A stretch of DNA of 64,000 bases. Source: a virus. Its lineage: Duplodnaviria > Caudoviricetes. The stretch lies in the IMG/VR virus record IMGVR_UViG_3300032030_002018, one strand, 5' to 3'. The notes under the pieces are model-generated. The model did not search any database. It had not been told where the DNA came from and was given only the letters and a program-made list of their open reading frames with translations. Below, piece after piece: positions 11,570 to 15,979 of this stretch. The position numbers and the translations under genes were made by a program. Each line of letters opens with the position of its first letter. The stretch's first letter is position 1.

Positions 11570-14002
11570 ATGGTCGAGAAAATAACGCAACAAACTGTAA
11601 ATGACTTCCTTTTCGGACGAGACCCTATGGAACGGATAATAACAATCGAATGTGATTACACTGACGACGAGGTAAGCATAATCTATGTTGACGACAAAGG
11701 CGTAAAAAGGGTTAAAAGAGAACCTTTCAAACCATTTGCCTGGGTGAAGCATAGTGCCGCTATACGTATGTATCAAGGTAACAAGGGGACAATAAAGAGG
11801 AAGTTAATGGAGTACGGCATATGGGTGAAGTCTTTACAATCAAAGAAAACTGGAATTGATAGACTTGACAACGGATATGTGTATATGTTCTACGCGACAA
11901 GAAAGATGTCATTCACACAGTTCCTTTCATTCTTCACAGACGCTGGTACTCCAATATACGAAAGAAAGAAAAAGGGAAACGAACAAAATCAGGGTAGTAA
12001 AGAGTTTATGGTTGTCTCACCCGTTGAACAATATATGATTTCAACAGGTAAAAGATTGTTTAAAGGCTATGAAAACTATAACGAACTTAAAAGAATGTCA
12101 TTCGACATTGAAACACAAGGTCTTAACCCTTTAATTCATAGAATTGAACAAATTGGTATACGGACAAATAAAGGATTTGAAACCATAATAAGTGTAGAGG
12201 GTGAAACAGAAGAAGAAAAAAACCAAAATGAATTAAATGCCATAGAACAAACAGTACAAATAATAGCAGAAGAAAAACCTGATACAATATACGGTCATAA
12301 TTCAGAGAATTTCGACTGGGATTTCTTCATTGTTAGATGTGTTGTACTTGGAAGCAGTTTTGAGAAAATAACATCAAAATACCTTAAATTTCCGATATAT
12401 AAAAGGAAAAAGGAAACAATATTGAAACTTGGCGGTGAAATGGAATATTTCAAGCCAACAATAGCCTGGGGTTTTATAATATTGGATTCATTGCACGCTG
12501 TTAGAAGGGCGCAGGCACTCGATTCAAATATGAAATCCGCCAATCTTAAATATGTCACAAATTATCTTGACTTGAAAAAAGAAAACCGCGTATATGTACC
12601 AGGAAATATAATCAGCCAAGTGTGGAATGTAAAAGAAGAAAAATATGCTTTTAACGACAATAACGGAGATTGGTATGAAATCACAGACAAACATAAATTA
12701 CTTGACGGATATGAAAGAAAATCAGGTAAATATATAGTTGAAAGGTATCTATTGGATGATATATGGGAAGCGGAACAAGTCGAATTAAGATTAAATGAAT
12801 CAAACTTCCTTGTCGGTAAAATGCTCCCTACAACATTCCAACGTGCTTGCACAATGGGTACGGCTGGCATTTGGAAACTTATTATGCTTGCTTGGTGTTA
12901 TGAACAAGGAATATCAGTACCTTCAACAGGAGACAATAAACGATTCACTGGAGGTCTTTCAAGACTGCTTAAAACAGGATGGGTGGACAGGATTGTCAAA
13001 CTTGACTACAATTCATTGTACCCTTCAATCACTCTAACTTGGAACATATCAACAGAACTTGACCAAACGCATATTATGCTCCACCTTCTTGAATATGTGC
13101 TTACACAACGAGAGAAATACAAGGAACTCAAAGCAGAGGCCGGCAATGAAGTTGACAGATGGAAAAATATGCTTCAAGACGCGAGAACGGAAGAAGAGAA
13201 GAAACATATCAAGTCAGAGATACATAGATGGAAAGCTGAGAAAATGGCAAACGACAAGAAACAATTGCCTCTTAAAATTCTTGCAAACTCATTCTTCGGG
13301 TCATTCGGTGCAGCATACATATTCCCATTCGGAGACTCAAACTGTGCGGAGAAAATTACCTGTATAGGAAGAATGTGCCTGAGACTTATGATTTCACATT
13401 TCACAAAACTTGGATATATGCCAATAGTAGGAGATTCGTTCACAGCAGACACACCTTTATTTATAAAATATAACGATACTGGTTTGATTGACATAAAACC
13501 AATATGTGAATTGATAAATGAAAATAATATAAAAATAGATGGATTGAATAGGGAATACGATTACTCAAAAAAATCATTTAAGGTACTTTGTAGAAGTGGA
13601 TGGGTAGAACCTGAATACATATACCGTCATAAGACAGAAAAGCCTTTATATGAGGTTTCAGAAGGCGATATGAGTGTTACTGTAACAGAAGACCACAGTT
13701 TATTTAATAATAAACAAGAAAAAATTAAACCAAGTGAAATAAACGATGATACGAAACTTGAATATTACGATGGAAAAATTGAACATTCATATCTTAACAC
13801 CAACATTAAGAGAGTAATTCAAATTGGAAAAATGCTTAAAAATGGTACAATTGACAGAATTCCTGTTGAAATATTGAATCTAAATGAAAAACAAGGAATA
13901 CAAGCATTCTTGGATGTTGTAAAAGACTTGGACACTGAAAATATGTCTAAAACATTACAAGCAGGAATACAATTTATCAAAAATAAAATGGTATCGAGAT
14001 AG
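11570..14002 (+). CDS. polB: Family B DNA polymerase N-terminal part (622 aa) fused to the N-half of a split intein (188 aa)
   Basis: Exonuclease motifs FDIET, HNSENFD and YLLDD; motif A DYNSLYPS; motif B KILANSFFG; motif C broken after VGD. Confidence 0.93.
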   Translation: MVEKITQQTVNDFLFGRDPMERIITIECDYTDDEVSIIYVDDKGVKRVKREPFKPFAWVKHSAAIRMYQGNKGTIKRKLMEYGIWVKSLQSKKTGIDRLDNGYVYMFYATRKMSFTQFLSFFTDAGTPIYERKKKGNEQNQGSKEFMVVSPVEQYMISTGKRLFKGYENYNELKRMSFDIETQGLNPLIHRIEQIGIRTNKGFETIISVEGETEEEKNQNELNAIEQTVQIIAEEKPDTIYGHNSENFDWDFFIVRCVVLGSSFEKITSKYLKFPIYKRKKETILKLGGEMEYFKPTIAWGFIILDSLHAVRRAQALDSNMKSANLKYVTNYLDLKKENRVYVPGNIISQVWNVKEEKYAFNDNNGDWYEITDKHKLLDGYERKSGKYIVERYLLDDIWEAEQVELRLNESNFLVGKMLPTTFQRACTMGTAGIWKLIMLAWCYEQGISVPSTGDNKRFTGGLSRLLKTGWVDRIVKLDYNSLYPSITLTWNISTELDQTHIMLHLLEYVLTQREKYKELKAEAGNEVDRWKNMLQDARTEEEKKHIKSEIHRWKAEKMANDKKQLPLKILANSFFGSFGAAYIFPFGDSNCAEKITCIGRMCLRLMISHFTKLGYMPIVGDSFTADTPLFIKYNDTGLIDIKPICELINENNIKIDGLNREYDYSKKSFKVLCRSGWVEPEYIYRHKTEKPLYEVSEGDMSVTVTEDHSLFNNKQEKIKPSEINDDTKLEYYDGKIEHSYLNTNIKRVIQIGKMLKNGTIDRIPVEILNLNEKQGIQAFLDVVKDLDTENMSKTLQAGIQFIKNKMVSR
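13436..13999 (+). mobile_element. Split intein, N-terminal half
   Basis: Block A SFTADTPLFI starting with Ser; block B TVTEDHSLF (TxxH); no block F/G before the stop. Confidence 0.88.
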
Positions 14003-14023
14003 ACGAATTTGTAAATCATATGA

Positions 14024-14098
14024 TATTATTACAGCAATCTTGGGATAGATTATCCGTATGAAGTTTTTGAAGATAAAGAAAAAATTTTGGATAATTGA
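14024..14098 (+). pseudogene. Remnant C-terminus of a free-standing endonuclease gene (probably Vsr/DUF559-like homing endonuclease)
   Basis: Start-less frame YYYSNLGIDYPYEVFEDKEKILDN*, resembling from memory the C-termini of such phage endonucleases; lies between the intein halves. Confidence 0.5.
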
Positions 14099-14116
14099 AA
14101 TATTTTTATATCTTTA
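14086..14116 (+). promoter_or_regulatory. Bacteroidota-type promoter for the polB C-terminal half
   Basis: TTTG(14086-89)-N19-TATCTTTA(14109-16). Confidence 0.55.
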
Positions 14117-14157
14117 ATAGTATTAAAACAAATGTTTAATTAAAAAAATATAAAATT

Positions 14158-14277
14158 ATGTTAAATATCAAAAAAATGGAGGATAGCCAAAACATCGGTG
14201 TTGTGTACGACATTTCTCTTGATGGCACGGTAGTGAATGCCCTTGGGATGAATGTTATTAGCAACACCGATGGCTGA
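14158..14277 (+). CDS. polB: Split intein C-half (36 aa) plus the first C-extein residues TDG; not in the ORF track
   Basis: MLNIKKMEDSQNIGVVYDISLDGTVVNALGMNVISN|TDG*: block F VYDI, terminal SN, +1 Thr; restores GDTDG. Confidence 0.88.
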   Translation: MLNIKKMEDSQNIGVVYDISLDGTVVNALGMNVISNTDG

Positions 14278-14279
14278 AT

Positions 14280-14493
14280 GGTTTCAACTTTCAAATGCCG
14301 AAAAGCGAAGATTTTAGATACACAGAAGAACATCCATACATAAGTGATGGTGGAGGAAGAAATAGCATTAAAGGAAAGAAATATACTGGAATAGAAGCTG
14401 ACGTTGCTGAATTTGAAGATATATTCTTCAATCACCCATTTAACGGTGGAGTTAACAAATTTGGTTTAGGAATAGATGAATTTTGTGATGCCT
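14280..14493 (+). CDS. polB: PolB palm segment (exon between the frame discontinuity and the group I intron)
   Basis: GFNFQMPKSEDF...GLGIDEFCDA continues motif C in a shifted frame. Confidence 0.8.
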
Positions 14494-14750
14494 TAACAGA
14501 ATATGGGCACGTTAAATCCCTTTTAATTGACTTGGAACTCCAATTTGGACAACAGGGCGCAAGCAAGAATTTATATATGTTCTGTGCAGCGTGAACGACT
14601 AAATAAAGGGACGATTAATCAAAAACGATTAATTGATGCGATAGTCTGAACTCTATGGTAACATAGAGAGGGAAACCCGAAGAGATTTCCCCGTTCAATC
14701 AAAATGATTGAATCACGCTATATAAACCACGATAGCGGCGTAACAGATTG
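14494..14750 (+). ncRNA. Group I self-splicing intron (257 nt, no ORF)
   Basis: P1: exon UGCCU with IGS GGGCA (U-G at the splice site); P10 GAAUAU/GUAUUC; P3 UCCCUUU/AAAGGGA; P7 GACUA/UAGUC; P8; P9 with GUAA tetraloop; terminal G. Splicing gives in-frame DA-C-IQFSRKNYA. Confidence 0.92.
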
Positions 14751-15979
14751 GTATTCAGTTCTCACGCAAAAATTATGCCGACTTAATGCCTGACGGAAAA
14801 ACAAAGAAAGTCGGTAATACTATAAAATCAAGGAAAATGTCTGGATATTTGGAGAAATTCATTGACAGTGGTGTTGACTTGTTGTTAAGAGGAAACGGTC
14901 ATCAATTCTTGGAGAATTATTATTCTTACATTGATGATATATACAATTATCGTATTCCGATAAAGGATATAGCCTCAAAGGGTAATATAAAGAAAACGAT
15001 TGATGAATACAAAAATGACTGTAAGCAAGTAACAAAGGCTGGCAGCAAAAAGCCAAGACAAGCCTGGTACGAATTGGTAATTCAGAATAATATCAATGTA
15101 AATGTAAGTGATACAATATATTACATAAACACAGGTACAAAAAAGAATCATTCAGATGTAAAACGTATTACTCATCAATTTACTCAATATTATGGTGAAG
15201 AACAAGAATTGACAACAAAATTAAAAACATCAATATTAAAGGAATTATGCGAGAAAAACAACCTTATTTATAAGGATGTCAAACAGAAGGAAAGAAATGA
15301 GATGATAAAACCATATATTTCAAGGGAAGAAGACGAAATTGTATTGAATTGCAAAATGGTTCCGAATGAGATAATAAACAGTGACGATGTTGTTCTTTGC
15401 AGTGACGTTGAGGATATGGAATACAATGTTGAGAAATACATTGAGCAATTCAACAAGAGAATAAAAGGCTTGCTTGTTTGTTTCTCACCAGACATAAGGG
15501 ATTCAATATTAGTTAAAAAACCTTCTGAAAGAAAATACTTTACTGATGAAGAATCACAGCTAGTCTGTGGATATCCAAACAAAGAAACTGACCAAGACAC
15601 CTATGAGGCATTGATGACACCTGAAAAGAAGGAAATAAGTTTCTGGCTGTCAATAGGGGAAGTTCCACCATTTGTAAAGGAATGTGATATCGATTGGGAT
15701 AAATTAGTAGAAGAGTATAAAGAGAATAAAAAGAAAGAGGAAACTGAACTATTCCAACACGAAAATGAACAATATCTGAAAGCCTTGGATGAACTGACAG
15801 ATGAAGATATTGATGAATTTGAAAATGAAGGAACAATACCTAAATCATTGACAGATATTGTATATATGGATTCAGATATGCATTTCTATTTCAAAAACAT
15901 ATCAGAAAAAACAACACCTTCAACAGGAGGATATATATTTGATGACATCAAGAAAATTGAATACGATGTTTCTTATTAA
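14751..15979 (+). CDS. polB: PolB C-terminal exon (end of palm and thumb)
   Basis: The frame of the 14786 ORF extends upstream to IQFSRKNYADL (conserved KxY motif), then KVGNTIKSR. Confidence 0.88.

Follow-up and report, generated by a model that had tools for sequence, protein, structure and literature searches.

The window, a stretch of 64,000 nucleotides from the IMG/VR record IMGVR_UViG_3300032030_002018, belongs to a 334,687-bp phage genome with an estimated completeness of 96% (IMG/VR). In this 96%-complete genome, a family-B DNA polymerase (PolB) is encoded in a single copy, and no PolA was found in the 334,687 bp. The polymerase gene is broken three times, namely by a split intein, a coding gap and a probable group I intron, and comprises the following features:

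11570..13435, + strand: PolB N-extein with the exonuclease, motif A (DYNSLYPS) and motif B (KILANSFFG); PF00136, E 3.7e-13, and PF03104, E 2.8e-8
13436..14002, + strand: N-intein half with stop codon; 188 aa, starting with SFTADTPLF, block B TEDH
14003..14157, + strand: spacer between the intein halves, 155 nt
14158..14265, + strand: C-intein half, 36 aa, ending ...NVISN
14266..14274, + strand: first three codons of the C-extein, ACC GAT GGC, encoding the TDG that makes up the second half of motif C
14272..14274, + strand: proposed take-off codon GGC
14275..14279, + strand: coding gap TGAAT (stop codon TGA plus AT)
14280..14282, + strand: proposed landing codon GGT, after which decoding would resume at TTC 14283
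14283..14493, + strand: C-extein exon 1, encoding FNFQMPK...EFCDA and ending with the first base of a Cys codon
14494..14750, + strand: predicted group I intron without ORF (41.7 bits, E 4.7e-9 with Rfam RF00028, whose gathering score of 50 is not reached)
14751..15979, + strand: C-extein exon 2 with stop codon, ..IQFSRKNYA... to the end of the polymerase

The N-extein ends in ...PIVGD, the first half of motif C, and its ORF (11570-14002) runs on into the N-intein half. The C-intein half lies in an ORF of 39 aa (14158-14277), which ends ...NVISNTDG-stop, and the last polymerase ORF as called spans 14786-15979. Joining 11570-13435, 14266-14274, 14283-14493 and 14751-15979 results in a protein of 1104 aa that is colinear with the uninterrupted polymerases of L002 and L005 (62% and 53.5% identity, respectively), without an indel at GDTDGF; at this site, the two homologues read ...IVGDTDGFD(F/L).... 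Likewise, the intron boundaries 14493|14494 and 14750|14751 lead to a product that is colinear with intron-less homologues and shows no indel at the junction. The gene model, the split intein and the intron boundaries of a preliminary description, which had been prepared from the sequence alone, hold up in this comparison with homologues and in the colinear join. The intron core (~14547-14693) is 74-75% identical to DNA of Prevotella Lak megaphages and a Desulfovibrio phage, and when the whole polymerase gene was compared with the phage collection, DNA matches were confined to this core.

The distribution of N-extein plus IntN and IntC plus C-extein over separate ORFs at a conserved site corresponds to the fractured-gene layout of split inteins. 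The predicted intein marks are Ser1, the TxxH of block B, a terminal Asn and Thr+1, and removal of the intein restores the host motif. The N-intein half is absent from the uninterrupted homologues L002 and L005. Its block B weakly matches the intein-like PDB chain 9hth_A (E 0.012); a Pfam search of the intein halves returned no intein match, and a PDB sequence search with the C-half no match. With its 188 aa, the N-half is ~70-85 aa longer than typical N-halves, and we take the extra C-terminal part (window 13750-13999, ...RIPVEILNLNEKQGIQAFLD...) to resemble the remnant of a LAGLIDADG endonuclease domain, for which Pfam gave no support in the N-half.

At the gap itself, the sequence reads GAT (14269-71), GGC (14272-74), TGA (14275-77), AT (14278-79), GGT (14280-82) and TTC (14283-85), exactly where the preliminary description had placed these codons, and the duplication of ATGG that it had pointed out is present at the break. 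The polymerase frame resumes at GGT/TTC, as had also been proposed: the frame from 14280 encodes GFNFQMPK..., and skipping 14275-14282 leaves no indel relative to the homologues. The genome uses the standard code (code 11), with ORFs of at least 150 aa covering 81% of it, and no suppressor tRNA was found among its 16 tRNAs. Reading TGA as a sense codon was rejected, since TGA ends 75 of the 240 long ORFs and a suppressor tRNA is lacking.

Gap alleles and the downstream polymerase frame

Gene calls on 17 contigs of JGI, Logan and ENA assemblies include the exact 39-aa ORF of the window. A protein search with the C-intein returned 142 clusters (36-70 aa), and in more than 100 the sequence ends ...SNTDG before a stop. 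Relatives do carry the same stop-containing insert: another viral contig, L007, reads GGC TGA AT GGC with a polymerase C-part that shares only ~50% identity with that of the window, and TGAAT was found in six further metagenome contigs. As for cultured phages, the element was found in none of 50,697 GenBank phage records.

Degenerate-pattern scans for the C-intein in viral contigs and in metagenome contigs yielded 72 distinct loci. A gap at exactly the same position is present in 31 of these, and 39 loci are gap-free and read ...N|TDG F N F without interruption. Eight gap sequences were identified: TAGCTA (12 loci), TGAAT (8, including the window), TAGTTA (4), TAA (3), and TGAATA, TGAAA, TAACT and TAGCTGA (1 each). 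With lengths of 3, 5, 6 or 7 nt, they include both in-frame forms and out-of-frame forms, as illustrated by GGU UAA GGU (L027, L033), GGC TGA ATA GGC (L003, L004) and GGC TGA AA GGT (L018). All 31 gaps start with a stop codon (TAG 17, TGA 10, TAA 4), and all 31 sit between two Gly codons. The take-off codon is GGC in 26 gap alleles and GGT in 5; the landing codon is GGT in 20, GGC in 7 and GGA in 4 (GGY in 27 of 31) and, as judged from the gap sequences, it is the first GGN triplet in any frame after take-off. Skipping from Gly to Gly always restores the DTDGF(N/D)F of the 39 gap-free and 2 intein-free alleles.

At the take-off position, GGY is used by 31 of 31 gap alleles compared to 20 of 39 gap-free alleles (GGT 14, GGA 10, GGG 9, GGC 6), a difference with a Fisher p of 1.2e-6 in which kinship is ignored; few ancestral events lie behind the gap alleles, so that p-values given here overstate independence. 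Indeed, gap alleles are confined to two C-intein clades, and their counts do not represent independent events. In the genome of the window, GGC makes up only 11.6% of Gly codons.

As gaps of both in-frame and out-of-frame length occur, one mechanism serving all of them has to be a frame-independent event. The gap might instead be retained as coding sequence, with 5-nt gaps undergoing a -1 (or +2) shift (TDG-LNG-F in the window), 3- and 6-nt gaps being read through and the 7-nt gap requiring a +1 shift, resulting in 2-3 residues added after motif C. While the in-frame GGC TGA ATA GGC could in principle be read through, three mechanisms would be needed at one site among close relatives, and an extra residue between G and F occurs in no gap-free allele. 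Moreover, TGA is a normal stop in this genome without a suppressor tRNA, all three stop codons are used, and the matched Gly codons would be left unexplained. The -1 frameshift to TDGLNGF, listed as an alternative in the preliminary description, finds no slippery heptamer at C GAU GGC U and cannot serve the 3-, 6- and 7-nt gaps of the relatives. We therefore regard translation of the gap as hardly probable.

From the landing codon onwards, the polymerase-frame ORF up to the first downstream stop comprises 473-499 aa in 19 of the 20 gap loci that extend to such a stop, with the exception of L033, whose downstream frame stops after 72 aa. Between gap alleles, dN/dS is 0.05-0.13 at a dS of 0.6 to saturation, and the downstream frame is under purifying selection. 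The three codons after landing (TTY AAY TTY) show exclusively synonymous variation in 26 of the 27 clade-1 gap alleles, the remaining one having GAT (Asp) for AAY (Asn) at the second codon. As in hop-type recoding, two ORF parts around nucleotides that would stay untranslated would together encode one colinear protein.

These findings bear on whether the break is genuine. In isolation, a lone 8-nt insertion with a 4-nt duplication resembles a slip, and an assembly or mutational insertion had been put forward as one possible origin. This fits poorly with the break being shared by many independent assemblies, the window's own ORF recurring on 17 contigs, with 31 distinct gap alleles, and with downstream ORFs that are intact and under purifying selection (dN/dS of at most 0.13 at saturated dS) in what is the sole DNA polymerase of the genome. 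The break in the window is not an assembly error, and an artefact or a decaying pseudogene is scarcely credible as an explanation of the gaps.

Termination at UGA could also be real, such that the C-intein would supply the N-part with TDG only and the thumb would be made separately from an internal start (ATG 14295), like in the split PolB of Methanothermobacter. Split PolB enzymes exist, the 39-aa ORF is complete, and in the window, as in some relatives, the landing codon is followed by an in-frame ATG at a distance of five codons. Across the gap alleles, however, the first ATG/GTG/TTG in the polymerase frame lacks conservation, its position varying between codons 5 and 58; in many of them it is found at codon 22, 35, 39, 47 or 58, past the conserved FNF..P..FRYT.EHPYI, and the codons right after landing vary almost only synonymously. 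Furthermore, 14295 is not preceded by a purine-rich ribosome-binding sequence, and separate subunits would not explain the matched Gly codons around every gap. Because the start position is scattered and the post-landing codons are conserved, a separate thumb subunit, for which ATG 14295 had initially been suggested as the start, is distinctly unlikely.

Variants of the break were also observed. Four protein clusters (P0017, P0039, P0095 and P0098) read ...NTDGWM... or ...NTDGLM..., which corresponds to TGG or TTA in place of the stop with the 8-nt shift kept. These variants are known from rare protein clusters only; the stop may perhaps not be strictly required, or else the variants may represent sequencing errors or dying alleles.

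A conserved 12-bp helix at the take-off codon

The C-intein sequence of the window contains the two arms of a 12-bp helix, the second of which reaches into the take-off codon:

14193..14204, + strand: 5' arm of the helix, CAUCGGUGUUGU
14261..14272, + strand: 3' arm of the helix, GCAACACCGAUG, ending on the first base of the take-off codon

In the main gap clade, the entropy of third positions is 1.0-1.7 bits for the majority of loop codons between -20 and -5, and synonymous variation is absent from two blocks, ATC GGT GTT GTG and AGC AAC ACC (and nearly so from GAT GGC). The frozen blocks are complementary to each other, and gap-free alleles vary freely at the same positions. Within gap clade 1, degenerate third positions are variable at 1 of 8 sites in the arms versus 16 of 17 in the loop (Fisher p 1.3e-4). 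For 24 distinct gap alleles, pairing was found in 99.3% of 288 cells, compared to 25-73% in controls with a slid partner, and compensatory double changes occur at two pairs (A-U to G-C in 4 rows, G-C to C-G in 3 rows). The helix is therefore both conserved and supported by covariation.

In all 31 gap alleles, register-free duplex energies lie between -14.3 and -19.9 kcal/mol, compared to no stronger than -9.0 kcal/mol in 31 of 36 alleles without a gap (Mann-Whitney p 4e-12, kinship ignored). Since the five other gap-free alleles also carry the helix, its presence does not suffice to produce a gap, and it may serve a different function. In a second gap lineage, comprising the TAA and TAACT types, the helix is built from different letters, with GUCCGUGU pairing with ACACGGAC; it cannot form in L026, the gap-free sister of this lineage.

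The region 14170-14285 of the window folds with -39.6 kcal/mol (z -3.95). The inner helices of this fold were discarded as candidates, as they contain many unpaired cells across alleles and the outer 12 bp alone are conserved. The preliminary description had noted a weak UGAA/UUCA hairpin at the site. It does occur in the window, but it is lost in the other gap types and hence is not a conserved signal; the conserved structure is the 12-bp helix upstream.

In several folds, the invariant, Shine-Dalgarno-like UGGAGG (14177-14183) pairs with CUU(U/C)CA of the FNFQ codons (14290-14295) and AGCC (14181-14184) with the landing GGYU (14280-14283), making the C-intein mRNA one long hairpin with the gap as a bulge. 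Across alleles, these outer pairings (AGCC/GGUU and UGGAGG/CUUCCA) are seen in several folds and are not consistently conserved.

Such structures raise the question of whether the 8 nt could be cut from the RNA before translation, by a helix-guided cut-and-rejoin reaction or by editing. Minimum-energy folds place the gap as an internal loop between the 12-bp helix and the weaker outer pairings, and a conserved helix would suit a structure-specific nuclease. On the other hand, we know of no micro-splicing of this sort in phages or bacteria, the outer pairings lack conservation, and neither the in-frame stop at the start of every gap nor the Gly flanks readable by one tRNA would be explained, which makes removal from the RNA very improbable.

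A different form of break was observed in two loci, L083 (11715-11735) and L086 (6800-6820), which have a single extra T and no stop gap (GGN T TTC AAC...). Their zero frame reads TDGFQLPNA... and stops within 6-10 codons, and the polymerase frame is intact in +1, with 347 aa running off the locus in L083 and 490 aa in L086. The helix is fairly strong in both (-11.7 and -13.4 kcal/mol, respectively). About 20 protein clusters represent this extra-T form, one of them on 302 contigs. In both loci, TDGFNF would be regained if tRNA-Phe slipped by +1 from UUU to UUC.

The C-intein as a mobile cassette

In the polymerase tree, gap alleles are scattered among gap-free ones, and well-supported branches force at least 8 changes; in the C-intein DNA tree, the same alleles form two clades. 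Gap and helix are found together in two separate C-intein lineages. Between the window and its six closest other TGAAT alleles, identity amounts to 90-100% over the 120 nt up to the gap; it drops to 63-67% over the 30 nt that follow the resume codon, and the N-intein DNA is only ~69% identical. The TGAAT allele L032 is more diverged (53-93%). Because identity is high up to the gap and low after it, with the N-intein at ~69%, a segment of ~135 nt (~14145-14282), comprising C-intein and gap, has recently been exchanged between diverged polymerase genes. The gap represents the 3' edge of this mobile C-intein cassette.

In relatives, the spacers between the intein halves comprise 0.3-4.4 kb and contain ORFs whose zinc-ribbon domains belong to DUF723 and DUF4379 and which show weak Vsr-like matches. 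In L003 (3858-5540), L048 (5569-6756) and L023 (9685-10623, minus strand), these ORFs consist of repeated DUF723/DUF4379 treble-clef zinc-finger modules and show weak matches to Vsr, DUF2726 and REase, with an additional GNAT-like region in the ORF of L003. They are candidates for free-standing homing endonucleases on the basis of these domains. In the window, the nuclease-like spacer ORF has been lost. The presence of a gap is not related to the size or content of the spacer, which measures 71-3588 nt in loci with a gap and 243-4422 nt in loci without.

In L009-L014 (records G001 and G002), the C-intein gene is located ~5 kb downstream of the N-intein gene. These loci read ...NVISN|TDGFNFKLP (AAT ACT GAC GGA TTT) and represent a gap-free split-intein state in another phage lineage.

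The cassette layout is shared with fractured genes that combine split inteins and free-standing endonucleases (Dassa et al. 2009, PMC2677866), the PolB relatives having a zinc-ribbon/Vsr-like ORF between the halves. The N-half of the window (188 aa) differs in size from that of the Aes123 PolB1 split intein (120 aa; PMC11923092), and the descriptions of both Dassa et al. (PMC2677866) and Aes123 PolB1 (PMC11923092) contain no coding gap after the C-intein. The 50-nt insert of T4 gene 60 protects against the homing endonuclease MobA (10.1101/2022.08.31.505936; 10.1101/2024.12.09.627546), and by analogy the gap or the cassette may protect its allele from a homing endonuclease.

Proposed programmed bypassing of the stop codon

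The best explanation for the gaps is, in our view, a programmed stop-hop by peptidyl-tRNA-Gly that is driven by the helix and encoded on a mobile cassette, and we consider this explanation probable. A hop from GGC to GGT over the stop, resembling that of T4 gene 60, had already been the leading suggestion of the preliminary description, and the comparative evidence favors it over each of the alternatives listed there. From this evidence, we infer the hop itself to proceed as follows. The ribosome would translate the C-intein ORF, decode GGC 14272-74, meet UGA in the A site and stall. At this point GGC occupies the P site, so that the E site and the mRNA exit path would contain the 3' arm in unpaired form, and the 5' arm would already have left the ribosome. 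Instead of termination, peptidyl-tRNA-Gly would then release GGC, and re-pairing of the helix would pull the mRNA out by approximately the hop distance (6-10 nt in the family, 8 nt here). The same tRNA would re-pair on GGU 14280-82, the first GGN met, and decoding would resume at UUC. The hopped product would be C-intein-TDGFNFQMPK... with no extra residue, and trans-splicing with the N-half would create ...IVGD-TDGF..., a normal PolB motif C. The spliced and hopped product would contain ...IVGDTDGFNFQMPK.

Against a hop, the landing codon in four alleles is GGA, which lies outside the standard wobble of tRNA-Gly(GCC). Furthermore, an essential polymerase needs a workable yield, and unstimulated stop-hops are low-level events. 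The role of the helix as a stimulator or driver of the hop is suggested by analogy with T4 gene 60, where a 5' stem-loop formed by the exiting mRNA has been proposed as the driver. The nascent chain in this case would be the C-intein, the conservation of which is already explained by splicing.

The PolB gap is best read as a miniature of the programmed bypassing known from T4 gene 60 (10.1101/2022.08.31.505936; 10.1101/2024.12.09.627546; PMC5009743). Both have matched Gly codons with a stop directly 3' of the take-off codon, a 5' stem-loop able to form only as the mRNA exits the ribosome, and a joined product that is colinear with uninterrupted homologues. Moreover, both gaps represent the 3' end of a mobile cassette beside a homing-endonuclease gene, MobA in the case of gene 60, as far as can be judged from the candidate nucleases of the PolB relatives. 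This likeness between the PolB and MobA cassettes is an analogy and not a shared membership, since the spacer ORFs found here encode DUF723/DUF4379 zinc-ribbon proteins that are weakly Vsr-like. There are further differences. The PolB gap measures 3-7 nt versus 50 nt in gene 60 (20 nt in the shortest gene 60 clade), leaving no room for the stem-loop in the A site at take-off that is central in gene 60, and the 3' arm of the PolB helix abuts the take-off codon, as opposed to a position 9 nt upstream in gene 60. In addition, the host gene is a topoisomerase for gene 60 and a polymerase interrupted in PolB motif C here, where the cassette includes the C-half of a split intein.

Stop-hopping has also been described for synthetic constructs in Escherichia coli, in which nine nucleotides were decoded as one amino acid (Weiss et al. 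1987, as reported in PMC5009743 and 10.1101/2022.08.31.505936), and unstimulated stop-hops in E. coli are characterized in the literature on bypassing as low-level or of low efficiency. The GGU UAA GGU of L027 and L033 is exactly of this form, and re-pairing is independent of frame in either case. While the Weiss-type hop is artificial, unstimulated and low-level, the PolB gap is natural and widespread and occurs, together with a conserved helix, within an essential gene. According to a review from 2016, no occurrences of natural in-frame stop hopping were known (PMC5009743). [quoted passage not shown] Its inserts, in contrast, measure 10 nt and are bypassed at UUA, a rare sense codon tied to host development, without an intein or homing context and in a handful of cases (PMC10732093). 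We found no report of a stop-gap hop in PolB in the literature searched.

More tentatively, and with somewhat less than even confidence, the element may be viewed as a general, evolvable recoding device: a helix that pulls the mRNA whenever the ribosome stalls would allow base insertions of 1, 3, 5, 6 or 7 nt to be skipped in any frame, and it would travel with the C-intein cassette and may shield the allele from a homing endonuclease.

Natural bypassing is known from few systems, i.e., T4 gene 60 and its homologues, yeast mitochondria, and the candidate in Streptomyces phage. If the view of a general recoding device is true, the PolB gaps would be the first natural family of stop-hops, and bypass elements would arise repeatedly in phage polymerase genes, such that T4 gene 60 would no longer be a near-unique oddity. 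The natural "mutants" of this family, which differ in gap length and landing codon, use all three stop codons and show compensatory changes in the helix, would sketch which features matter, and the element of ~120 nt would offer a compact model for how mRNA structure behind the ribosome may drive sliding. For annotation, the gaps are a warning that gene calls falsely split the polymerase genes of giant phages from gut and rumen into fragments. Finally, with the gap as the edge of a mobile intein cassette, recoding in these phages would be tied to the biology of selfish elements.
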